64,000 nucleotides of DNA from a virus (lineage: Duplodnaviria; Caudoviricetes), in IMG/VR virus record IMGVR_UViG_3300021431_000096, positions 29,360-93,359 of that record, one strand, 5' to 3'. The translations under genes and the position numbers were made by a program. Below the pieces are notes generated by a model, which was not told the DNA's origin, did no database searches, and saw only the letters and a list, made by a program, of their open reading frames with translations. Position 1 is the stretch's first letter. Each line of letters begins with the position of its first letter. Shown here piece after piece: positions 1 to 29,417 of this stretch.

Positions 1-2
1 AT

Positions 3-407
3 CAAGACGGATTCCGCCTGAACGCCAGCAATGGTCTGCAGCGATACGACTCGCGTAACGGATGGGGTCCGATGTTTGCCGGGCGCCGCGTGGACAAGGT
101 AACTGCAGCAAAGACGCTCGACGATACCTATGACTTCATTATCGCCGACCCGTCGAACTATTCCGGCGGTTTCACCATCACCCTGCCATACAATCCGCCC
201 GACGGAAAAATCATCACTATACAGTGTACGAGTTATGATCGTTGGGTGGACGTACAGCGGAACACGATTGGCTACATCAAGGTGCTCGGACAGGCATCGG
301 GACTGCCAGCCAATACCTTCGTGAAGGTGAGGATATCCAACTTCGAGCGAGGCGAGTTCGTCGCTTTCGGCGGCAACTGGTATGCAACGAAGTCGGCTTG
401 GGATTAA
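3..407 (+). CDS. C-terminal fragment of a tail/baseplate-associated protein (truncated by window start)
   Basis: Frame of ORF 72..407 stays open back to position 3; beta-rich C-terminus (ITLP...GKIITI...GNWY) of the kind seen in phage tail proteins. Confidence 0.5.
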   Translation, partial: QDGFRLNASNGLQRYDSRNGWGPMFAGRRVDKVTAAKTLDDTYDFIIADPSNYSGGFTITLPYNPPDGKIITIQCTSYDRWVDVQRNTIGYIKVLGQASGLPANTFVKVRISNFERGEFVAFGGNWYATKSAWD

Positions 408-445
408 TAAAAATCGGTCTTGCGGGGCGGCCCTCGAGGCCCATT

Positions 446-479
446 GTCCCAAAATTTTTCGGGCACGACACTAAATTTG
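446..479 (+). promoter_or_regulatory. Phage-type promoter GTCCCA-N20-TAAATTTG
   Basis: GTCCCA 446-451, Bacteroidetes -7 box TAnnTTTG 472-479; one of 13 copies. Confidence 0.7.
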
Positions 480-515
480 TCGGTAGAAAACGCGGGCGGT
501 CGGCAGAGAGTCCCC

Positions 516-611
516 GCAGGTGGTACGACGTATCACATGGCGGCTGGCACGACGGAACACCTCGCAGGTGATACGACGTAGCACCCGGCAGGTGGCACGA
601 CGGACGCGCCG
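516..611 (+). repeat. 4 x 24-bp imperfect tandem repeat (GCAGGTGGYACGACG core)
   Basis: ACGACG at 525, 549, 573, 597. Confidence 0.85.
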
Positions 612-658
612 CAGACAGAAAAAAAAGAATATTCACCAACAACAAAAAAGTAACAATT

Positions 659-1237
659 ATGATTGACATTAACATTTACGTGAATCAGGGCGTCGAGGCA
701 TTCGGCACGACCGGACGGACGCTCACCGTGAACGAACTGCCCAAGGAAGTCTCGCTCGACTTCGTGGCCGAGGAGCTGCACCACAAGATGCGCCATCTGG
801 AGAAGGACGACATCACGATGGTGCTGTCGCGCTTCCTCGACGTGGCGGCACGCATGATGGCCGAGGGATTCGGCATCCAGTACACCAACACCAAGGAGGC
901 CGTGATGATGCGACTCTACACCGACGCCCGGCTCGACCTGCCGACGAAGAGCATCAACCTGCAGAAGGCGCAGGAGCTGATGCCCGACGTCGTTCACACC
1001 GAGCAGGACATGGTGGACCATGCCGTCGAACTCGTGGCGATGGTCGGCGTCAGGCTGCGCCCCTACGTCGAGGTGAAGCAGAAGTTCCATGAACTGCTGG
1101 CCGACTACAAGCCGAAGTATCAGGTGAAAGATACCGTTGAGCGGGCCTACGTGGAGAAGAAGGACGGCTCGGGCTCCGGCTCCGACGATAACGGCGGCTC
1201 TGATGACAACAACGGCGGCGACTCGCTGGAAGGATAA
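659..1237 (+). CDS. Bacteroidetes HU/IHF-related DNA-binding protein
   Basis: Size, HU-like helical N-half (LDFVAEEL...DITMVL...MAEGF) and G/D-rich tail ending LEG, as in 58190..58693. Confidence 0.55.
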   Translation: MIDINIYVNQGVEAFGTTGRTLTVNELPKEVSLDFVAEELHHKMRHLEKDDITMVLSRFLDVAARMMAEGFGIQYTNTKEAVMMRLYTDARLDLPTKSINLQKAQELMPDVVHTEQDMVDHAVELVAMVGVRLRPYVEVKQKFHELLADYKPKYQVKDTVERAYVEKKDGSGSGSDDNGGSDDNNGGDSLEG

Positions 1238-1362
1238 ACCAAAACACAGAGATACATAGACACAGAGATTAAAGAAAGAAAAGCTCTGTACCTCTGTACC
1301 TCTGTGTTGAAAAAAAGTAATCATAAAGCTCAAAGTTCAAAGTTCAAAGCTCAAAGTCCACT

Positions 1363-2880
1363 ATGGCAGTATCAGATGATTTCCGCAAGCAATGGCTCGA
1401 AATGGAGGAGCAGTACGGCAAGAACATCGAGCTGGGCGACATCCAGAAGATGGAGGTCGGCCAGGTCGACGAGACCGTCTCCATGCCCGCCGTGAAGTTC
1501 ACCGACCAGACGCTCACCGTCTTCCAGGAGTACCGTCACGTGCCGATGAACACGTTCATGAAGCCCATCACCGACAAGGTGGCCGAGGCCGAGACGCGAG
1601 TGACAAAACTGGAAAGCGACGTCAGCACCGCCGTCACCCAGGCCAATGCCGCCCGCGACAATGCCAACAACGCTGCCGGGCGCGTGGACACCAGTATTGC
1701 CAATGCCAATGCTGCCGCCGCCACCGCCAACGCCGCCGCGCAGAACGCCGACTCCTCCCGTCAGGCCATCGAGGCCAACGAATCGACGCGACAGACCAAC
1801 GAATCGACGCGCCAGTCGCAGGAATCTACACGCCAGAGTCAGGAGGCCACACGTCAGGCTCAGGAATCGACGCGGCAGTCGCAGGAATCCACCCGTCAGA
1901 GTCAGGAGTCCGCCCGTGAGACTCGTGCCACCAGCGACCACAACCGTGCCGAGACTGACCATACCACTGCCACCACGGATCACTCGACGGCTACCAGCGA
2001 CCACAGCCGCGCCGAGACCGACCACACCGCCAGCGTCAGCGCCACCAGCGAGGCGTCGAACGTCAATGCGCAGCTGGAGGGCATGACCGTGACCATCACC
2101 AACCGCAGCGGCGTGCAGACGAGCGTGAACATCGGCTTCGAGATTTACCGCACCTACACGTCCGTCGCAGCCATGCAGGCCGACGCCGCCAACGTGCCGC
2201 AGGCCAAGTTCGTGATAATTGCCACCACCGATGCCACCGACCCCGACAACGCGAAGCTCTACGCCAAGAACGCCGCAGGAGGCTTCACCTTCCTCAGCGA
2301 CCTCGACCAGGCATCGAGCGCAGCCTTCGCCGACTGGCTGGAGAACTACAAGCCCGTCATCGAGGCCGACCACACGCAGGCAGGACTCGACCATCAGCAG
2401 GCTGTCAGCGACCACTCGACTGCTGCCAGCGACCATACGCAGGCCGGCACCGACCATGCCCGCGCCGAGAGCGACCACACCACGTCGCAGACCGCCTCCG
2501 GCTATGCCAACGAGCAGGGCGACTATGCCAAGAACATGGCCGACCACCCCGCCTACCTCGCCGACGGCACCGCCGCCCATCCAGGCGATGCTGGCTATCT
2601 CTACACGTGGGACTACGCCCGGCAGCAGTATGTGAAGGGCGCACGCATTTCGCTCGACTTCGATTCGATGACGCCCGAGCAGAAGGAAGAGTTGGCTGAT
2701 GCCGTACTCGCCGCCATCGGATTCGACACCGTTCCGACGGAAAACTCCGACAAGGCCGTTACCAGCGGCGGGCTATATATCGCATTTCAGAATGTCAATA
2801 CCGCTCTCGCCGGCAAACAGGACACGCTGACGTTTGCCACCGACGCAACCTGCGAGGCCATCATCGACGAACTCGTCTAA
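1363..2880 (+). CDS. Coiled-coil fibre/tail-associated virion protein
   Basis: ESTRQSQ and DHxxAxx heptad repeats, PTENSDKAVTSGG and KQDTL fibre motifs, high GC3. Confidence 0.65.
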   Translation: MAVSDDFRKQWLEMEEQYGKNIELGDIQKMEVGQVDETVSMPAVKFTDQTLTVFQEYRHVPMNTFMKPITDKVAEAETRVTKLESDVSTAVTQANAARDNANNAAGRVDTSIANANAAAATANAAAQNADSSRQAIEANESTRQTNESTRQSQESTRQSQEATRQAQESTRQSQESTRQSQESARETRATSDHNRAETDHTTATTDHSTATSDHSRAETDHTASVSATSEASNVNAQLEGMTVTITNRSGVQTSVNIGFEIYRTYTSVAAMQADAANVPQAKFVIIATTDATDPDNAKLYAKNAAGGFTFLSDLDQASSAAFADWLENYKPVIEADHTQAGLDHQQAVSDHSTAASDHTQAGTDHARAESDHTTSQTASGYANEQGDYAKNMADHPAYLADGTAAHPGDAGYLYTWDYARQQYVKGARISLDFDSMTPEQKEELADAVLAAIGFDTVPTENSDKAVTSGGLYIAFQNVNTALAGKQDTLTFATDATCEAIIDELV

Positions 2881-2887
2881 CGTCGTT

Positions 2888-2920
2888 GTCCCATTTTCGC
2901 AGAAGCATTTTGTAACTTAG
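2888..2920 (+). promoter_or_regulatory. Phage-type promoter GTCCCA-N19-TAACTTAG (one mismatch in -7 box)
   Basis: Same spacing as the other copies, 24 nt before ATG 2944. Confidence 0.6.
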
Positions 2921-2943
2921 CATCAGCAAAAGTACAAAGGAAT

Positions 2944-3642
2944 ATGGTAACGACAATCAACATACCAGTGGTGCCGCCGGGGACGGATTTGAAGTTCCGC
3001 GTGACGGTGACAAAGGAAAACTTCGACCTGACACGCGACCCGTTCAACATCGTCATCAAGAACAGTTGGGGTCGCGTGGTGGCCCGCTTGCTGAAGAGTG
3101 ACTGCTATCAGGACTCTGAGGGCCGCTGCTATTTCAATATAGATAATGTAAAGGAGGGCGAGTACATGGCCGTGTTCGTCGGTGCCTATGCCGATGCCGA
3201 CTACGCCAAGCAGCATCGCATGTGGAACGACCGCCAGCCGCTCTACATCGGCAGCAACGACTGCGAGACCACGAAGCGGCACTGCTGCGACGGGCATCCC
3301 GTCGAGTATGAGCAGATATGGACGGTGAACGTCAGCGACGGCGAGTATCTGGCCGACAGCGACGGCAACTTTGTCTATACCTCCGACGGCCAGCGCATCT
3401 CGTTCAGCGACCGCTCGACTGCTGACGGTAAGGTGCGCCTCTCGATGACTGGCGACGAGTTTCTCAAGCTCATCGAGGGCCGCGAACCAAACAGCGAGGT
3501 GAACACCATTCCGGAGATGATGGACGTGATGCGCGGCATCACTGACGACGAGACCATCCCGCAAAAGATTCAGCAGGAAATCGACGGGAGTCAGGAGGAG
3601 AATGAGGCGAGCGACGCCGACATCGACAGCATTTTCGACTAA
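2944..3642 (+). CDS. Putative virion protein with C-terminal DIDxIF motif
   Basis: Long ORF with phage codon bias; ends ASDADIDSIFD. Confidence 0.6.
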   Translation: MVTTINIPVVPPGTDLKFRVTVTKENFDLTRDPFNIVIKNSWGRVVARLLKSDCYQDSEGRCYFNIDNVKEGEYMAVFVGAYADADYAKQHRMWNDRQPLYIGSNDCETTKRHCCDGHPVEYEQIWTVNVSDGEYLADSDGNFVYTSDGQRISFSDRSTADGKVRLSMTGDEFLKLIEGREPNSEVNTIPEMMDVMRGITDDETIPQKIQQEIDGSQEENEASDADIDSIFD

Positions 3643-3654
3643 AAAAATAACGAT

Positions 3655-3957
3655 ATGGCAACGACAGACAAATATCCAAGCTACCTGCCCGAGGACTTCA
3701 AGGGACTGGAGTCGATTCAGGAGGGCAACCAGCGGTACTACTATAAGACGGTGGACGGGCAGAATCTGCTCATCGGCGCTATCGTCGGCAAGCGGCATTT
3801 GGTGATCCGCTTTCCCGAGGGTTCGACTATCGACGTGATTCCGAAGGACTCGGTCGGCACGGACGAGATCAAGGACGGCGGCGTGCATCAGGAGGATCTT
3901 GACCCAAACATCGAGGCCGCCGATGACGACATCGACAATATTTTCAATAATCAATAA
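3655..3957 (+). CDS. Small putative virion protein with C-terminal DIDxIF motif
   Basis: Ends AADDDIDNIFNNQ. Confidence 0.6.
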   Translation: MATTDKYPSYLPEDFKGLESIQEGNQRYYYKTVDGQNLLIGAIVGKRHLVIRFPEGSTIDVIPKDSVGTDEIKDGGVHQEDLDPNIEAADDDIDNIFNNQ

Positions 3958-3963
3958 GGCGAT

Positions 3964-4263
3964 ATGAACAAGACAAAGGAATTGGAACTTTTCAAAATGT
4001 CCGACGGGTTCTGGGCAGGACACCAGACCGCAGACGGAAAACGCATGAAGGCGGGCGCTCACAAAATCACCGCCGAGGAAATCATGACGATGTTCACCGA
4101 GTTCTTTCAGGACTACTGCAAGGAAACTGGCGAGTCGAAGCTGCTGATGCAGGACGGAAGCGGCAGACTGTTCGTCACGATGCGGGTGCCAGACAAGCAG
4201 GCAGAAAAGCCGAAGAAGTCCGCACAAAAGCCAGCACACAAGAAGCGCAAGGCTAAGAAATAG
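3964..4263 (+). CDS. Hypothetical protein with Lys-rich C-terminus
   Basis: ORF in operon context. Confidence 0.55.
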   Translation: MNKTKELELFKMSDGFWAGHQTADGKRMKAGAHKITAEEIMTMFTEFFQDYCKETGESKLLMQDGSGRLFVTMRVPDKQAEKPKKSAQKPAHKKRKAKK

Positions 4264-4356
4264 CCCGCACACCAACCAACAATATCCAACACAAGATAGA
4301 ATGAGACTAAATCTCAGCATAGTTCACTGATTTATTAACTAAAATTTGTTTGCATT

Positions 4357-5328
4357 ATGGCAATTACAAATCCAACCAAGTACGTTTCCGTACAAAGACT
4401 GAGCCGCTTCGAGGCTAAGCTCGCTCAGAAGTATCAGACACAGGCCATCACCGCCATCACTGGTCTGAATGCAGAAACCGTAGAGGCCGCTCTGGCTGAG
4501 TTGCTCGGCAAGATCAACGCGCTCCCCAGCGCCATCATCCCCAAGGGCTCCAAGGCTTTCGCAAGCCTCGCTCCCTCGACCGACCTGGCTGCTGCCAACC
4601 TCGGCTTCATGTGGAACATCACGGACGCCTTCACCACCACAGCCGACTTCGCCGAGGGCGCTGGCCACAGCATCCCCGCTGGAGCCAACGTGTATGTGGC
4701 CAACGTAGGCACCGCCGCTGAGCCCGTCTACAAGTACGACATCTTCGCCGGCATGTACGACCTCTCAGGCTACGCCCTGAAGAGCGAGATGTCTATCACC
4801 GACGGTGAGGGTGCCGACGCCGACAAGACCACTATCCAGCTGAAGAGCGGTCTGTCGAAGCAGGTGCTCATCGCCCACCAGGACATCAGCGGCAAGGCCG
4901 ACAAGGTGGCTTCTGCTACCAGCGGCAACCTCGCCGGACTGGACGGCAACGGCAACCTGACCGACTCTGGCATCGCAGCTACTGACGTGGCTACTATCGA
5001 CGCCGACGCCGTGGAGGGCAACATCGCCGAGTTCGACGCCAACGGCAACCCCGTGGACAGCGGTCACGCACTCTCTGAGTACAAGACCAAGCAGACGGCT
5101 GTGGCTGATGCTGACGCCACCACCAGCGGCAACGACACGACCTTCGTGGACAGCGTGACACAGGACACCAACGGCGAGATCTCCGTCCACAAGAAGACCG
5201 TTCCCAACGTGTCTGCCTCTACCTCTGGCGCAGGCGGCACCAACGGCCTGATGCTCGCCACCGACAAGGAGAAGCTCGACCTGCTGCTGGAGTGCTCCGA
5301 CGACGACATCGACAGCATCTTCGCGTAA
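4357..5328 (+). CDS. Head/tail fibre-like protein
   Basis: HQDISGKADK, GNLAGLDGNGNLTDSG repeats and GLMLATDKEKLD, motifs common in phage fibres; ends DDIDSIFA. Confidence 0.7.
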   Translation: MAITNPTKYVSVQRLSRFEAKLAQKYQTQAITAITGLNAETVEAALAELLGKINALPSAIIPKGSKAFASLAPSTDLAAANLGFMWNITDAFTTTADFAEGAGHSIPAGANVYVANVGTAAEPVYKYDIFAGMYDLSGYALKSEMSITDGEGADADKTTIQLKSGLSKQVLIAHQDISGKADKVASATSGNLAGLDGNGNLTDSGIAATDVATIDADAVEGNIAEFDANGNPVDSGHALSEYKTKQTAVADADATTSGNDTTFVDSVTQDTNGEISVHKKTVPNVSASTSGAGGTNGLMLATDKEKLDLLLECSDDDIDSIFA

Positions 5329-5340
5329 TCTCTCTATCCC

Positions 5341-5375
5341 AGGTCAGCAGGGTTCGACTCCCTGCTGGCTTGCCA
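5341..5375 (+). ncRNA. tRNA-like minihelix (acceptor stem + T-arm + GCCA)
   Basis: AGGTCAG-CAGGG-TTCGACT-CCCTG-CTGGCTT-G-CCA; no D or anticodon arm. Confidence 0.5.
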
Positions 5376-5398
5376 AACATTTTAAAACATCAAGAGAT

Positions 5399-5536
5399 AT
5401 GGCACTAACAAACGAAACAAAGTACGTGACCGTGCGACGGCTCAATCGGTTCCGTAACAAACTGAGGGCAGAACTGCCGAGTACGACCGTTGCATCCGAC
5501 GCCACCTGCGAGGCCATCGTCGACGAACTCGTCTGA
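5399..5536 (+). CDS. 45-aa motif-only adaptor peptide (not in ORF track)
   Basis: MALTNETKYVTVRRLNRFRNKLRAELPSTTVASDATCEAIVDELV*; N-half matches the N-terminus of 4357..5328, C-half matches the C-terminus of 1363..2880. Confidence 0.75.
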   Translation: MALTNETKYVTVRRLNRFRNKLRAELPSTTVASDATCEAIVDELV

Positions 5537-5574
5537 CGCCGTGACATTTGTATAACCAATAAAAAGAAAAGAAT

Positions 5575-6480
5575 ATGGCAGATGAATTAGAGAACAACGG
5601 CCAGCAGGTGCAGGGCACCAGTGGCCATGAGAGCGAGACCGTCAGCGTCGGCGGCCTGAAAGCCTCGCTGCAGAAACTGAAGACCGACCACATCGACACG
5701 AAGTACACGAAGCCGTCAGGCGGCATTCCGTCCACGGATATGACCTCGGCGGTGCAGTCGTCCCTTGGCAAGGCCGACGCCGCCAAGGCACTCCTCGACG
5801 ACATCGTGCCCGCACAGGCGTCGGATCAGAACCAGCTTGCCGACAAGAGCTTTGTCAACTCGTCGGTTTCGACGGCAACGGCCACCCATCGCGGCACGTT
5901 CAACCTCGTCAGCGACCTCTCGCTGACCGTTTCGGCCACGCAGTCGCAGATTGCCACCGCACTCGGCACCGCCATCCAGACGGCAGACAACAACGACTAC
6001 GCCTTCGTACAGGTGCCGACGGCCGACGACAATCCGACGGAGATTGCCCGCGTGGACCGCTACAAGCATAACGGCACGGCATGGGCGTTCGAGTACAGTC
6101 TGAACAACTCTGGCTACACCGCCGCGCAGTGGGCAGCCATCAACTCGGCCATCACCAGCGCGAAGGTGAGCGGATATGACTCGCACGTTGGCAACTCCGA
6201 TATTCACGTGACCACGCAGAACAAGACGGCGTGGAACGCCAAGTACGACAAGCCCAGTGGCGGCATACCAAAGACAGACCTTTCCAGCGGCGTGCAGTCA
6301 TCCCTGGATAAGGCCGACGCTGCCGCCCCGCAAAGCACCACCTACTCGAAGACCGAGGTCGACCAGAAGTTCGACGAGTTCGCTGGTCCGACCTACGATC
6401 CCGCCACGCGGGCCATCATCTTCCCCGCCACGGCGAAGGTGTCATACGACGCCGCCAACCGCGCCGTCGTCTTCGGATAA
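5575..6480 (+). CDS. Fibre-like virion protein
   Basis: Two KYxKPSGGIPxTDxxSxVQSSLxKAD repeats, YSKTEVD motif, C-terminal YDxAxRAxxF repeats. Confidence 0.65.
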   Translation: MADELENNGQQVQGTSGHESETVSVGGLKASLQKLKTDHIDTKYTKPSGGIPSTDMTSAVQSSLGKADAAKALLDDIVPAQASDQNQLADKSFVNSSVSTATATHRGTFNLVSDLSLTVSATQSQIATALGTAIQTADNNDYAFVQVPTADDNPTEIARVDRYKHNGTAWAFEYSLNNSGYTAAQWAAINSAITSAKVSGYDSHVGNSDIHVTTQNKTAWNAKYDKPSGGIPKTDLSSGVQSSLDKADAAAPQSTTYSKTEVDQKFDEFAGPTYDPATRAIIFPATAKVSYDAANRAVVFG

Positions 6481-6516
6481 GCAGTACAAGTATTCACTCA
6501 TTAATTTATAAGCATT

Positions 6517-7926
6517 ATGGCACAGGAATTTGACATTTTGAAAATCGGAGGCGTTCCCATCAACGCCTGCGACGTCGTGGCACGCCAGCGCATCGACGAG
6601 CTGGCAGCAGCCAGCGGCGTGACCTACTTCGGCCGCGTGTGGAACCTCCAGAACTCCACGCCCGTGGCCGACCACTACATCGGCAACCTCGCCTTCGGAC
6701 AGCAGCTGCCCGAATGGCTCGGACTGGGCTGCTACATCGTGAAGAACGACCACAGCCGTAAGAAGCTGATGGCCGACAACCATTATAAGTACGAGAACGG
6801 TGCTCCCGCCAAACTGGATGGTACAGAAGGCCATTACCAGTGGGGATGGGGCAAGAAGTTCTATATCGTGGTGAAACAGCAGGGCGACGAGCTGGCGCTG
6901 ATTATTGCCAAGGGCAAGATTCCCGGCGAGGTGAACTACACCATTCCCGTGGCCTCTGAGTCTGCGGCTGGATGGGCTACGATGGAACGCAGCACTGGTA
7001 AGCTGGTAAGCTACATCAATATGGGTGCCGACTACCGTGGTGGTAACAACGACAGCAGTCGTGACGGACAGTATAACACTATGCTCGGACGCCCTGCATC
7101 TTCTATGACTACCAACGCATTCCTGACTGCCGCCCGCCTGAATGGCGACGGATGGCTGGGTGCAAGTATGCGCTTTGACTGCGTGAAGGCCATACTCTTC
7201 TACGTCATCTTCGGTAACCTGAACGTACAGGCCGCCTATAATGCCAATAAGGACGCCAATGGACTGTATCAGGGCGGACTTGGTACTGGTCCTACCAATG
7301 CAGGCGGTTGGTGGGGAGCCAACTGGGACTATTATCCCGTGTTCCCACTGAGTGCAGGTATAGAGTTGGGCGACCGTTGTGGCGTGTTCAACTATGTAGT
7401 GAAGGACGGTGAGGACAATACGTTGCAGACCATGCAGGGTACCTGTTTCTTCGGATTGAAGAACGGCATGGGCGGTATCATGTGGAAGATGATGACCGAC
7501 GAGTTGCTGCAGTGTAATGAGGATAAGAGTCAGACGCACCTGATAGCCGAGAAGATTTGTAAGGTGGACGGCAATTACACCTACAGCATCGGCAACAGCG
7601 CTACGGGCTTTAAGGTTGGTGGTACCACACCTGCTTATGAGAGTGCTGCATGGAACAGTATCAGCCGCGTGCTCTTCAAGAATCTTGAGCTGCTGCCTAT
7701 CGGTGTCGGTCAGACCAATCGCTTCAGCGATGATTATTACAATCCTGCTATAACCTCCGGGTTCCGTCTTGTGCTCCGTTCCGGCTCTCTGGACCATGGT
7801 GGTCGGTGTGGCCTTTCGTTTGTCCTTGGTTACATTGGTGTCGGGAATGCCTATGCGTACGGCGGGTCGTCGCTCTGCGAAGTGACCGAGGAGTGGAGCG
7901 TGGACGGAGAGTACGTCGAGGTCTAA
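6517..7926 (+). CDS. DGR target protein, probable receptor-binding protein with C-terminal CLec-like variable region
   Basis: VR lies in the last ~57 codons (GFRLVLRSG...GSSLC); last gene of the fibre module. Confidence 0.85.
   Translation: MAQEFDILKIGGVPINACDVVARQRIDELAAASGVTYFGRVWNLQNSTPVADHYIGNLAFGQQLPEWLGLGCYIVKNDHSRKKLMADNHYKYENGAPAKLDGTEGHYQWGWGKKFYIVVKQQGDELALIIAKGKIPGEVNYTIPVASESAAGWATMERSTGKLVSYINMGADYRGGNNDSSRDGQYNTMLGRPASSMTTNAFLTAARLNGDGWLGASMRFDCVKAILFYVIFGNLNVQAAYNANKDANGLYQGGLGTGPTNAGGWWGANWDYYPVFPLSAGIELGDRCGVFNYVVKDGEDNTLQTMQGTCFFGLKNGMGGIMWKMMTDELLQCNEDKSQTHLIAEKICKVDGNYTYSIGNSATGFKVGGTTPAYESAAWNSISRVLFKNLELLPIGVGQTNRFSDDYYNPAITSGFRLVLRSGSLDHGGRCGLSFVLGYIGVGNAYAYGGSSLCEVTEEWSVDGEYVEV
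7755..7875 (+). repeat. DGR variable repeat (VR)
   Basis: 15 mismatches to TR over 121 bp, every one opposite an A in TR. Confidence 0.95.
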
Positions 7927-7983
7927 GGATTACGATGTGGTCAATGTGTTCAACAGGTGACAAAGGTTAACAAAAAGGGGGCA

Positions 7984-8013
7984 AGCACGCCCCGCCCCAA
8001 AGCGGGGCGTGCT
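7984..8013 (+). promoter_or_regulatory. GC-rich hairpin/cruciform downstream of VR
   Basis: AGCACGCCCCGC-cccaaa-GCGGGGCGTGCT, perfect 12-bp stem; DGR target-recognition hairpins lie downstream of VR. Confidence 0.65.
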
Positions 8014-8052
8014 CCCCTTCGCTCTAAAAAACATGGTAGCTCTCGTTAAAGA

Positions 8053-8173
8053 CTCCGGGTTCCGTCTTGTGATCCGTTCCGGCAATCTGAACAATGGTGG
8101 TCAGTGTGGCCTTTCGATTGTCAATGGTAACAATGGTGTCGGGAATGCCAATGCGAACAACGGGTCGTCGCTC
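8053..8173 (+). repeat. DGR template repeat (TR)
   Basis: 23 adenines, mostly in AAC/AAT codons; constant 298-bp offset from VR. Confidence 0.95.
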
Positions 8174-8328
8174 ATCTTTATTGGAATATTCAAAAATATA
8201 CATTGGACGACGAGAGTGCCACGCCTCATGGCGGAAAATAAACTGGGGGTGCAAGTGTTGGTAGGCTCACGCGGAAGGACCGTAACAGAGTGCGAAGACA
8301 GGAGCATCTAATGAATAAAGCAGAATAG

Positions 8329-9861
8329 ATGAAGACGATAAAACGACTATCGGACGACATAGCGACTGTCAATAATTTCATCGAAGCGCATGAGAACTAC
8401 ACAGAGACAAAGCCTTATAGGACTGATATCCGTGAGTTTGAAAGCAACTTCACTGCAAACATCAGAACACTTCTTAGAGCATATAACCTTGGCAACTGGG
8501 TGCCACCAGAATACGAAGAGCGTACTATCGTAGAACATAACAAGCTACGGAAACTTGGTGTTTATCCTGCGGCAGAGCACAATATAGAATGGGCAGCACT
8601 GAATTATCTGGAGAAACCGTTGACCGATACATACATCCGCAACTCTTGCGCCTGCGTCAGAGGACGAGGACAGAATGACTTTATTGATATCATATCCCGC
8701 GCCATGCGCAACAGTTATGATGACACACGCTACGGCGTGCAACTGGATGCGCACCACTACTTTCAACTGATAGATCACAATATCATAGAGTGTGTGCTTG
8801 AAAGGAAGATCAAGGACGAAAGGTTGATGCGGTTACTGCACAATATCCTGAGTTCTTTCATGAACGGATTGGTGCTCGGTACTAAACTCAGCCAGATAGA
8901 GGCGAACTTCCAACTGTCGCCCTTTGACCACGGAGCACAATCATTATGGGGTGTTCGCAACGATGTGGAGAAGATGTGTTACTGGCGCCGAAGATATGTT
9001 GACTGGTGCATAGCAACCGTGCGAACCAAGGAACAGGCCGAGGAGCTCGCCAAGGGCGTGCAGTACCTGAACGCGAAGTTCGACAGCCTTGTGGACAAGG
9101 GCGTGTTCTATGCCAGGTTTGCCGACAACATCATCATGCTCTCTGGAGACAAGGCATTCTTGCATATCGTCACCGAAATTGCCATTATGGTGCTGGCACG
9201 GGACTATCACTATCAAACTAACAAGTCGTGGAATGTCCGACCTGTTGAACCCGATGGCATAGACATCTGCGGTTATGTATTACATCATTATTATAGAAAA
9301 GTAAGAAAACGCATTAAACAAGATTTATGGAGAGAGGTCATACAGCTTCGCAAAAAAGGGAAATCGCCAGAGGAAATACGCCTGGCATGTGCCTCGCGTA
9401 TTGGGTGGCTAACGCATGGCGACTGTAGGAACCTTCTCAGGAAAATGAATGTCAATATGGAAGAACGGCTTGGCGATAAGATTAAGAAAAAGAGAATAAT
9501 GATTCCTTTTGAAGGTATGACGAAAGAACAGCGACGTTCTATCGAGGACTTTCTTTGTTATACTGACGAAGACGAAAATGATAAGATGATTCTCCTTTTG
9601 GAATATACTGTCGGCAAGTCGATATTTCCAGGAAAAGAAAACCGTGCTGCGTTAAGGTTCAAAACTTCAAACGGAATCATTCGTCATCCCGATGGTACCA
9701 CAGAGCATCAGTGGAGTGAAGAGGAACTTTACGCATGGACTGGTTCACAAATACTGATAGAACAGATGTTGCAGGAGTTCTCACCAGAAGATTTGCCTGC
9801 GCCGACGGCCATTCACGAAAACACGAACAAATACGGAAAGAAATATTATAAGTTCACTTAA
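8329..9861 (+). CDS. DGR reverse transcriptase with C-terminal extension
   Basis: SCACVRGRG, QLDAHHYF, LVLGTKLSQ, YARFADN, GIDICGY motifs. Confidence 0.92.
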   Translation: MKTIKRLSDDIATVNNFIEAHENYTETKPYRTDIREFESNFTANIRTLLRAYNLGNWVPPEYEERTIVEHNKLRKLGVYPAAEHNIEWAALNYLEKPLTDTYIRNSCACVRGRGQNDFIDIISRAMRNSYDDTRYGVQLDAHHYFQLIDHNIIECVLERKIKDERLMRLLHNILSSFMNGLVLGTKLSQIEANFQLSPFDHGAQSLWGVRNDVEKMCYWRRRYVDWCIATVRTKEQAEELAKGVQYLNAKFDSLVDKGVFYARFADNIIMLSGDKAFLHIVTEIAIMVLARDYHYQTNKSWNVRPVEPDGIDICGYVLHHYYRKVRKRIKQDLWREVIQLRKKGKSPEEIRLACASRIGWLTHGDCRNLLRKMNVNMEERLGDKIKKKRIMIPFEGMTKEQRRSIEDFLCYTDEDENDKMILLLEYTVGKSIFPGKENRAALRFKTSNGIIRHPDGTTEHQWSEEELYAWTGSQILIEQMLQEFSPEDLPAPTAIHENTNKYGKKYYKFT

Positions 9862-9888
9862 TATTCATCATTTTAAAATGTTTTGATT

Positions 9889-10542
9889 ATGAAAACAAGA
9901 AGTTATCAGTCAGGTTTGACTTACGAAAAGTATGATCGCGACCACATTGCAATCTACTTCAACGAGACAACAAAGGAAGTGCCTTCGGGTAATGATAGGG
10001 AATCGACACAGGTAGAGTATGAATACGATACTGTGCTTGTGGCTGCTGAGACTCCTTCAGTAGAGGCATTTGCAGCAGCCCTTGTGGCTAATGGCATAGC
10101 CTTGCTTGATGCACAGGCTATTGCTACGGGTATTATCTTTGCTTCAATCCAAAAGGGGCAGTTGGAGGGTGATGAGCTTGCTGCAGCCAAGGAGATGGTA
10201 CGAGCCAAGATTACTGCCTACGACTCGTCATCGGCAGTTAATGAGTTTACCTATCAGGGAACGCCGATGTGGCTTGACAAAGACACACGTGCAGGTTTGA
10301 TGCTGCGACTGAATGCCGAACAGGCTGGTGGTCACGAAAACACAACGTTATGGTATGGCACACAATCCTTCTCGTTGCCTGTAAGCAGTGCTATACAGAT
10401 GCTTACCGCATTGGAACTTTACGCATCGGCTTGCTTCGACATGACGGAAGAGCACAAAGCCGCTGTTGATGCCAAACACACGGTTAACACCGTATTGGCA
10501 TACGATTATACGCAAGGCTATCCCGAAAAGCTGGCTTTCTAA
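9889..10542 (+). CDS. Tail fibre assembly-like protein (DUF4376-like)
   Basis: KITAYDSSxAVNxF...MWLDKDTR...LELYA...YDYTQGYPEKL pattern typical of Bacteroidales phage genes after fibre/DGR loci. Confidence 0.6.
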   Translation: MKTRSYQSGLTYEKYDRDHIAIYFNETTKEVPSGNDRESTQVEYEYDTVLVAAETPSVEAFAAALVANGIALLDAQAIATGIIFASIQKGQLEGDELAAAKEMVRAKITAYDSSSAVNEFTYQGTPMWLDKDTRAGLMLRLNAEQAGGHENTTLWYGTQSFSLPVSSAIQMLTALELYASACFDMTEEHKAAVDAKHTVNTVLAYDYTQGYPEKLAF

Positions 10543-10577
10543 TCGTTTGTCCTGATTTTCAATAACGCAGAGTAACT

Positions 10578-11081
10578 ATGAGCGTTTCGATAATGCTTTC
10601 TATCCTCCTGGTGGTGTCCTTTGTGGGCACCACCATTTGGAAAGAGAAAGAACTGCCAGATAGCATCAGCGCAATGGTGTGGGTGCTTCCCGAAGGCGGC
10701 TTGCGGTGGCTGTGGTCAATATGGCTCGTTGCCGTGTCCATCCTTACCTTTGCTCCTGCCATCGGCATCCTCGACGCAAGGGGTCTTGGTGTGTTCGGAT
10801 TTCTGCCTATGGTATGCCTCGGCTTTGTTGCAGTGTGGCCTCTCTTCGACCAGGAACACGTCAAATGGCACTACGTGATGGCAGTGGTCGGCGGCATCCT
10901 CTCGCAGGTCACGGTGGCTTTTATCAATCCGTGGTGGCTATCCGTCTGGCTCTTGATGGCTGTAGCGCTATGGAAGCCCATCAGAAGCAAGGCTGTGATG
11001 ATATCGGAGTGTCTATGCTATGTGGCGATGGTTGGCGCACAAACAAGCACAGCTCTTTTCGTCCACACGCAAAATCCATAG
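10578..11081 (+). CDS. Multi-pass membrane protein
   Basis: Five or six hydrophobic segments. Confidence 0.65.
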   Translation: MSVSIMLSILLVVSFVGTTIWKEKELPDSISAMVWVLPEGGLRWLWSIWLVAVSILTFAPAIGILDARGLGVFGFLPMVCLGFVAVWPLFDQEHVKWHYVMAVVGGILSQVTVAFINPWWLSVWLLMAVALWKPIRSKAVMISECLCYVAMVGAQTSTALFVHTQNP

Positions 11082-11297
11082 CAATAAATCTTTTTTTCAT
11101 TATGACTAACGGCGAAGAACAGAAATCACGGAGTTACTTTTACCGCTTCGAGGCCAACACGCGGATATCAAGCCCGACAAGTTCGGTGGCGCACAGGTGG
11201 CCACGCCCGACATGCTGACCGCCGATATGTTGACGTGGGGCATCAAGGCCGAGATAGACCGCAAGTTCTCCAAGGTTTTCGCTATGAACAAGCAGAC

Positions 11298-11434
11298 CGC
11301 GCGTCCAGGACGGCACCTCATCCGAAGGCGGTGATAATGGCGACAACGGCGGCTTCGCTAAATTCAGCGGCACGCCCTCTCCGGCAAAGCGCCACCGTCT
11401 GGATGAATGTTTACAATGGTCCCAGACGCGTTGG
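11298..11434 (-). ncRNA. Candidate rod-like small RNA
   Basis: Begins just after the minus-strand promoter 11440-11470; 11300-11309 pairs with 11421-11430 through two G-U pairs only on the minus strand; inner CATCC/GGATG and CGGTG/CACCG stems. Confidence 0.4.
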
Positions 11435-11439
11435 AACGG

Positions 11440-11470
11440 CAAAGGTAGGGAATGTTTTCGGAACGGCAAG
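11440..11470 (-). promoter_or_regulatory. Host-type promoter CTTG-N19-TACCTTTG
   Basis: Plus strand CAAAGGTA 11440-11447 and CAAG 11467-11470. Confidence 0.6.
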
Positions 11471-11641
11471 CGTTCGTTAGCATTATTTAAGGAAAAGCAC
11501 AAGGGGAGTCCCCGCCGTCCGAGATGGATGGCAGGGATGACTTTGTGGTGTTCTGGCAGCTACCTGACGACGACCGTCAGCTCCGATCCGTCCGTGAAGA
11601 TGATGTCCTGATTGTGATACAGAGGTGGTTGCCGTTATTTA

Positions 11642-11675
11642 GTCCCAAACGAAAAAAGCACATATTGTAAATTTG
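11642..11675 (+). promoter_or_regulatory. Phage-type promoter GTCCCA-N20-TAAATTTG
   Basis: Exact motif and spacing. Confidence 0.7.
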
Positions 11676-11744
11676 CTGATAGAACGCCGCCCAGATGCGG
11701 TTAACAGCGCCAGCCGCAGACAGCGGCTTACTCTCGCGAAGGGA

Positions 11745-11884
11745 AAAGAAAAAAGTTCAGGACTTGCGGGCGAACCTGCTACAATTCTAACGGACATGAA
11801 CCGTCTGTACCCGCAAGGAACCTGAACTAAAAGGTCTCCTTTCTGATACGACGGTTCAATATTTTATTCCGTAAGAATTGTAGC
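11745..11884 (-). ncRNA. Candidate structured RNA with interleaved A-B-A'-B' pairing
   Basis: 11754-11770 complementary to 11810-11828; 11778-11805 complementary to 11850-11884; minus-strand TAATTTTG box at 11889-11896 and U-tract at the 3' end. Confidence 0.5.
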
Positions 11885-11885
11885 G

Positions 11886-12200
11886 ATGCAAAATTATAAC
11901 AAAAATTACAATCGAGAGAATATCCATCACATCAGTGGGTACAATTTAGTGAAACTTAACGCTTATAAACTGAAATTAATGCAGGCTCTCGGCATCAGGG
12001 TGGAGGACGTTAAAAACCTTGCTCCTTACGAGGCTTATCACAACATGATGGGCATGAATATCGACCGAAAGCGCATGTATGCTTTCATCCGGCAGGAGTA
12101 CGGCATCAGCAGGACGAATATGCAGAATATAGCGAAGCGTTTTGAGCAGACGGTTGACAATGATGCCGGTGATTTCGGGGAGGAAATCGGAGACGGATAG
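11886..12200 (+). CDS. Small HTH (Mor-like) DNA-binding protein; true start may be GTG 11949 or ATG 11979
   Basis: C-terminal AFIRQEYGISRTNMQNIAKRF helix-turn-helix pattern. Confidence 0.5.
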   Translation: MQNYNKNYNRENIHHISGYNLVKLNAYKLKLMQALGIRVEDVKNLAPYEAYHNMMGMNIDRKRMYAFIRQEYGISRTNMQNIAKRFEQTVDNDAGDFGEEIGDG

Positions 12201-28754: not shown

Positions 28755-29417
28755 TTACATTGCAAACGAGATAAAGTGGCTTGCGCCGTAGATGGCTCCG
28801 ATGGCGATGATGATCATCTTCAGCCAATAAAACACCCATGCACCGAAACCTACCCAGTCGGGATAGTCGCTGAGCACGATGCCCGTGCGCTTGATGCGGC
28901 ACTTGACAAGCCAGATAGTCACCGACTGCCATACATACTGCATGGTTGACAGCAACAGATAGAGCAATGCCGCACCGCCCAGCACATAGAACTCCGCATA
29001 CTTCGAGCCGCCAATGAGCTGACCAGCCAGCAGGACTATCATCGCCCATGCCAGCTGCTCGGCACGGTCGCCCGACGTCTTGCTGCGGTTCTGATACTCG
29101 TCGTAGGCAGCCTGCTCGGTAAGTGGCTGGTCGGCATCGTCCTCGCGCTCAAAGACAGGCTGACGTACTTCCTCCGTCGCTGGGTCAACCAGTTCGAGGT
29201 CATCCTCTAAGATCTCCCACAACTCTGTTCCGAACTTCACGTCATATACCATGCGATAGGTGTCAACATCCATCACATAGCCTGTGCGCCCTGCCAACTC
29301 TTTCGTCTGCTTGGCCCACACATGGTCGCCCTTCTTAAACTTTGGCTCTACTGCGCCCCCCGATAAAGATGCAGGTACCGCATCAGGACGCTGGTTCTTT
29401 TTGTTTTGTTCTGTCAT
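28755..29417 (-). CDS. KOW/SH3-like N-terminus fused to a membrane domain
   Basis: PKFKKGDHV...DLELV followed by three TM segments. Confidence 0.55.
   Translation of the reverse strand: MTEQNKKNQRPDAVPASLSGGAVEPKFKKGDHVWAKQTKELAGRTGYVMDVDTYRMVYDVKFGTELWEILEDDLELVDPATEEVRQPVFEREDDADQPLTEQAAYDEYQNRSKTSGDRAEQLAWAMIVLLAGQLIGGSKYAEFYVLGGAALLYLLLSTMQYVWQSVTIWLVKCRIKRTGIVLSDYPDWVGFGAWVFYWLKMIIIAIGAIYGASHFISFAM

Follow-up and report, generated by a model that had tools for sequence, protein, structure and literature searches.

The long tail fibre of phage T4 is assembled from the products of consecutive genes (gp34–gp35–gp36–gp37), which are segments joined end to end with the receptor binder last. 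With SP6/K1-5-type podophage adaptors and the branched LtfA/LtfB fibres of T5-like phages, exchangeable receptor-binding proteins are attached to a conserved site by a small protein or a short docking peptide. In the branched receptor-binding proteins (RBPs) of KP32, K11 and KP34, podophages that infect Klebsiella, RBP1 carries an anchor and a branching domain and RBP2 carries a conserved N-terminal docking peptide (PMC6872550); the interaction between peptide and socket has been validated experimentally (PMC13352976). Here we analysed a stretch of 64,000 nucleotides (the window) from a Caudoviricetes genome (IMG/VR record IMGVR_UViG_3300021431_000096, positions 29,360 to 93,359), which contains a cluster of nine consecutive genes on the + strand (1363–7926). 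Those named here are A, the 232-, 100- and 99-amino-acid (aa) proteins, F, M, D and T, and they are followed by the template repeat (TR) and the reverse transcriptase of a diversity-generating retroelement (DGR). Short peptides recur at the ends of these proteins, in the classes C1, X and Y at C-termini and N1, Dn and Tn at N-termini, and M, with 45 residues, consists of one N-terminal head and one C-terminal end. We consider it probable that the peptides are type-specific connectors that join fibre segments end to end and that M is a peptide-only adaptor; the docking is something we infer from the way in which these sequences vary between genomes.

By analogy, the Klebsiella arrangement of anchor, branching domain and conserved peptide is the closest described system, the same in principle and different in its parts. 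In both cases a short conserved N-terminal peptide would be the sole attaching element of a separate receptor-binding protein, and modules are exchangeable between phages. The counterpart here is the N1 head, which starts at residue 1–7 and has no sequence similarity to the Klebsiella peptide. Whereas the Klebsiella socket is a folded T4 gp10-like branching domain, the candidate socket here is another terminal peptide of ~12 residues; at the sequence level, the ten cluster proteins and a giant tail protein encoded upstream gave no Pfam or PHROG match to a T4 gp10-like branching domain or a T7 gp17-like anchor. This locus also differs in its many orthogonal types and its free-standing two-peptide adaptors. 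With the T4 long fibre it shares the order of genes, but T4 segments are large, need dedicated chaperones and have no sequence relation to the window proteins, which had no PHROG or Pfam match to gp34–gp37 or their chaperones; we know of no shared short connector motif or peptide-only link in the T4 fibre. The adaptors of SP6/K1-5-type podophages and the LtfA/LtfB fibres are functional analogues; the adaptors have folded domains of ~100 residues or more, whereas M has 45 residues and no body, and its ends switch type independently.

Two further systems bear on the distal end of the cluster. The Mtd protein of Bordetella phage BPP-1 is a DGR-diversified protein with a lectin fold at the distal end of a tail fibre, the position also proposed for the DGR target T; T differs in that its attachment would involve one separate segment of the shaft (D) or more, possibly at two positions. 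In the cultured myovirus FP_Taranis of Faecalibacterium (L072, NC_047914), the consecutive fibre proteins gp65 and gp66 end in the same 15-residue motif and lie upstream of a DGR target. In its general class this motif agrees with X and C1, and gp66 shares the central region of F, which suggests that the connector class reaches beyond phages of Bacteroidota. FP_Taranis differs in its host phylum and in that no mini adaptor is annotated or evident there, and its motif is unannotated and unstudied; the annotation of gp65 and gp66 themselves goes no further than tail fibre or hypothetical protein. In a literature search, which was not exhaustive, neither these motifs nor the mini adaptor were described in any paper.

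Terminal peptides and the 45-residue protein M

The first-pass annotation of this DNA, made by reading the sequence alone, had listed shared protein ends across the fibre genes, and each of them is present. C1 closes the 232-aa protein (2944–3642, C1 at 3607–3639), the 100-aa protein (3655–3957, C1 at 3916–3945) and F (4357–5328, C1 at 5293–5325). The X motif forms the last 14 residues of both A (1363–2880, X1 at 2836–2877) and M (5399–5536, X1 at 5492–5533), and an N motif occupies residues 7–22 of both F (N1 head, 4375–4422) and M (N1′ head, 5417–5464), so that M is a head, a short linker and an X1 end. D (5575–6480) has a related N-end motif at residues 21–35 (Dn1, 5635–5679) and ends in two Y strands (6388–6477), and the DGR target T (6517–7926) has the peptide quoted for its N-terminus at residues 9–23 (Tn, 6541–6585). 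The DNA repeat that had been noticed at the ends of A and M runs over 58 nt (2829–2886 versus 5485–5542) with 86% identity and extends beyond both stop codons. A six-frame translation of the whole 93-kb genome gave three matches to the C1 pattern, exactly the three C-termini named above, and the N, X and C1 motifs were found nowhere else in that genome. Among the related loci described below, N1, X and C1 were never internal in open reading frames (ORFs) longer than 150 aa. We conclude that the motifs, the 45-aa ORF and the DNA repeat are not chance matches. Because C1 has an acidic tip and a terminal aromatic residue, we also considered a likeness to the tail of single-stranded DNA-binding protein, an idea we set aside since the motif does not occur outside the fibre cluster. 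Pfam and PHROGs contained no family for any of the terminal motifs or for M.

We assembled a sample of ~45 related loci from scans of viral and metagenome contigs and from look-ups of database proteins. M is kept in the same position in ~35 related rumen and gut phage contigs, and all related loci whose sequence includes this position have a gene with an N1-class head that begins 70–115 nt after F. Over the first 26 codons of 30 distinct M sequences, the proportion of synonymous differences (pS) was 0.57 and that of nonsynonymous differences (pN) 0.23; the third codon position varied in 25 of the 26 codons and the first and second positions in 15–17. On this codon evidence M is under purifying selection. 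Within a genome, the heads of M and F are only 61–70% identical in DNA (40–46 of 66 nt), so the M head is a stable paralogue of the F head and not a converted copy. A profile of such mini proteins matched 56 clusters among 1.84 billion representative proteins. In every one of these global matches with a reported alignment the N1 head began at residue 1–7, in proteins of 43–1186 aa, and ~35 of the matches were proteins of only 43–87 residues. The claim that the cluster contains a 45-aa ORF made up of motifs alone was thus borne out, its conserved position, purifying selection and terminal placement marking it as a genuine protein gene. As far as its sequence can tell, M is a real, conserved protein whose sole components are an N1-class head and an X1 end.

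Co-variation of connector types

The C-end of M falls into discrete types; besides X1, X2, X3, X5 and a Y type there are at least three others. We compared these with the C-end of A, encoded 2.5 kb upstream, and found the same type in 14 of 15 genomes; label shuffling gave an expectation of 4.4, and none of 200,000 shuffles reached 14. The sum of BLOSUM scores along the diagonal was likewise reached in none of 20,000 shuffles. When placed on the tree of the intervening F gene, the M type required 19 changes, against a shuffled mean of 19.7. The type is therefore scattered at random on the F tree, and the match between A and M was not inherited as one block. Within genomes, the X copies of A and M differed mostly at synonymous sites (pooled pS 0.63, near saturation; pN 0.26), which indicates that selection at the protein level, not gene conversion, maintains the match in general. 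The pS of the paralogous copies rules out gene conversion as its general cause.

The window and one relative (L003) show a higher DNA identity between A and M, which runs past the stop codon, and in these two genomes gene conversion has probably acted. The DNA repeat of the window is, on this sequence comparison, probably a local conversion in this genome and not a general mechanism. Past the stop codon the identity continues into a short shared motif, GTTGTCCCATTTT (window 2881–2900, after A), which likewise follows both X copies in L003 and occurs in the F–M spacers of L042 and L055; possibly it moves together with the connector as a promoter or terminator element.

The N-end type of D followed the C-end type of M without a mismatch in ~36 typed loci, across three very different families of backbone and N-head. 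The strongest signal is the co-variation of the M C-end with two other ends, the C-end of A and the N-end of D, which follows M, and we therefore read M as an adaptor for mounting D. This changes one part of the earlier proposal, in which separately encoded segments are chained by their ends, with M as one more link of the same kind. Chaining by connectors is supported by the type-specific co-variation across ~40 loci, the strictly terminal placement and the purifying selection, and the DGR-diversified protein keeps its place as the last link. A second element of that proposal, the docking of acidic C-terminal helices onto basic N-terminal helices, fits C1/N1 and X1/D1, whereas types 3 and 5 are largely uncharged, and the electrostatic rule is therefore not general.

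Other joints showed related patterns. At the step from D to T, the window and three relatives (L008, L044 and L074) have a Y-type C-end and, after it, a Tn-type N-end. Two others (L007 and L009) have a 100-aa-protein homologue with a Y-like end in place of C1, and their F and M have Tn-like heads in place of N1, so that the Y-to-Tn pairing recurs in a second gene context. C1 and N1 both give way to a third pair of classes in L008, where the pattern is kept (A like M, the small protein like F), and they have drifted jointly in the divergent lineage of L074. The 100-aa body carries a C1 end in N1-type phages and other connector types in other phages, such as an X5 end in L055. Connector-only minis were also found at other joints, in the form of a 74-aa D in L038 and of proteins of 58–76 aa that combine an N1 head with a Y end. 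Some minis are lengthened by one or two shaft repeats (L060, P0015 and P0057), and in these the head and the X end lie at opposite ends. In addition, an unrelated phage contig (L006:7203–10651) has four consecutive ORFs, one of 50 aa, with a different but analogous pair of N- and C-terminal motifs. The head-and-tail connector logic may be widespread in other phage groups.

Proposed assembly and its alternatives

We propose that the cluster at 1363–7926 encodes a host-recognition apparatus built from separately translated segments. The C-terminal peptide of one segment would dock the N-terminal strand-plus-helix peptide of the next according to type, of which the relatives have at least eight. 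C1, at the C-ends of the 232-aa protein, the 100-aa protein and F, would receive F and M by their N1 heads; X1, at the C-ends of A and M, would take the N-end of D; and the double Y strand of D would take the N-end of T. In this scheme M converts a site that accepts N1 into an X1 site, and the D–T adhesin could be carried by the long fibre A and, via M, by the F branch as well. The X–D and Y–T pairings are suggested by co-variation, and the segments would presumably be trimeric and part of the virion.

Several observations weigh against this scheme. The pairing of C1 with N1 would follow from elimination and three lineage-level co-changes only. One genome (L029) combines an A of type X1 with an M and a D of type 2, and M occurs in several genomes that have no A (L025, L015 and L016). 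M adjoins D, so that linkage alone could account for the co-variation between these two. The AlphaFold2 (AF2) monomer of M is just two moderately confident helices (residues 12–25 and 34–44; pLDDT 73), and M aligns to residues 1–50 of F; it could be a stand-alone copy of the N-terminal domain of F and not two independent connectors. A C-end connector fused to its proposed N-end partner, as a Rosetta-stone protein, was not found in the loci; the search for fusions among longer proteins, made with the first 70 residues of D as query, was swamped by a common shaft repeat.

These points have to be weighed together with other explanations of the same sequences. The end motifs might be self-association or assembly tags, that is, trimerization seeds or chaperone-recognition tags, with M as a scaffold, cap or assembly regulator that may leave the virion, and A and M would then share X through the same folding helper or through mutual association. 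That the motifs are short amphipathic helices, that a conserved 99-aa protein is present in every cluster, that M resembles the beginning of F and that no fused connector forms were found would all agree with such tags. A generic tag, however, need not switch type with the N-end of the next gene on near-identical backbones, and it is this switching on an otherwise constant backbone that argues against assembly or chaperone tags. M moreover retains X in the A-less genome L025, which speaks against X–X self-pairing, and the 99-aa protein stays unchanged across connector types. We regard tags as unlikely.

We give considerably less credence to the idea that what is shared are recombination linkers at the DNA level, placed at the borders of modules, and that M is a functionless relic, made of an F-like head and an A-like tail. 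Exchange of the distal module is free with respect to F, as linkers would allow, and the A and M copies of the window and L003 are near-identical in DNA beyond the stop codon. Most genomes are, however, saturated at synonymous sites between the copies while the peptide is kept, which argues against recombination linkers, and the F and M heads, divergent in DNA, persist as separate paralogues. About 30 distinct sequences and the 56 global clusters have an intact M ORF, and a relic was rejected on this conservation and the selection described above. Finally, M could be the first part of a recoded M–D fusion, produced by frameshift or read-through, and not a separate protein. The spacer is indeed short, with 38 nt in the window and 12 nt, in frame, in L002, but its length and the relative frame differ between loci, a stop codon lies in the D frame upstream of the D start, and D has its own start in every locus. 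The variable frames and spacing argue against recoding, which we rejected and hold to be very nearly excluded. Joining of segments by type-specific terminal connectors, with M as an adaptor, is the explanation we prefer.

Other features of the cluster and biological meaning

The order A ... F, M, D, T is conserved among related loci. A is a repeat-rich fibre protein of 505 aa, much of which is formed by two arrays of 21-nt (7-residue) repeats (1765–1932 and 1927–2494, + strand). In relatives it has 270–830 aa or is split over two genes, and both ends are kept, which makes the shaft length look freely adjustable. F is a 323-aa fibre protein with shaft repeats between its head and its C1 end (phrog_31688/38190), and D, a 301-aa fibre shaft segment, and T, the presumed distal adhesin, match tail-protein families (phrog_27373, 1e-16, and phrog_5302, 2e-44, respectively). 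The giant protein upstream of the cluster has host-range and tail-fibre PHROG matches, as seen in a relative. The shaft repeat of D recurs in many long phage proteins, and D weakly matches the stem of the receptor-binding protein of Listeria phage PSA (Gp15, 6r5w); beyond this weak shaft match, F, D and the M profile had no useful match in sequence searches of the PDB. A megablast search of positions 1–12000 against phage records returned a single 92-nt match. The DGR of the window is genuine: its variable repeat (VR) in T (7755–7875) and the TR (8053–8173, + strand) are 121 nt long, all 15 of their 15 mismatches fall at TR adenines, and the reverse transcriptase ORF lies downstream of the TR (8329–9861, + strand).

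We also examined the small proteins between A and F. AF2 predicts an Ig-like β-sandwich for approximately residues 1–155 of the 232-aa protein, followed by a low-confidence, disordered acidic tail with C1 at its end; C1 is invariant across nine homologues. Foldseek gave generic Ig matches only, and the neighbours of the 232-aa protein in the ESM Atlas, BppU-like and Phage_tail_C proteins, were below the reliable range. The 99-aa protein (3964–4263, + strand) is conserved and occurs in every cluster variant, including the distant N2-type phages, with a Lys-rich tail that varies. Its ESM Atlas neighbours were hypothetical proteins only, and no family or fold is assigned to it; we consider it a candidate assembly factor.

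The spacer between F and M holds a minihelix that resembles the acceptor and T-arm of a tRNA (5337–5373, + strand), recognized in the comparative alignment. It consists of a 12-bp helix with an invariant T-loop-like heptaloop and invariant closing pairs, always lies between F and M, and shows compensatory changes in 10 of its 12 pairs among 35 distinct homologous sequences. ARAGORN found no tRNA in it, and its best Rfam match, mascRNA-menRNA, a tRNA-like RNA whose processing involves RNase P, scored 18.3 bits, below the gathering score of 42.5. We rejected the possibility that it is an attachment-site copy of a tRNA 3′ end, since both strands of the continuous 12-bp helix co-vary, which is not required of a tRNA gene fragment. 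The hairpin may be an RNase P or tRNase Z processing site or a stabilizing element, and through it F may be expressed separately from M, D and T.

The rules by which receptor-binding modules are attached decide the host range of phages, and to our knowledge only a handful of model phages have had such rules worked out, with no phage of rumen or gut Bacteroidota among them. It is quite possible, though we advance it tentatively, that these phages use a combinatorial docking code of at least eight mutually orthogonal C-end/N-end pairs of 10–20 residues, together with peptide-only adaptors of 43–79 residues, in which any distal adhesin module, a DGR-diversified one included, can be re-plugged onto any proximal fibre by the exchange of a few dozen codons. 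If true, such a code would be a natural minimal counterpart of cohesin–dockerin for virion assembly, and ORFs of 43–79 residues, usually missed by gene callers, could be structural parts of the virion. Connectors that are short, orthogonal and separable would then explain how adhesins are shuffled freely in these phages and how the DGR-diversified tip is mounted.

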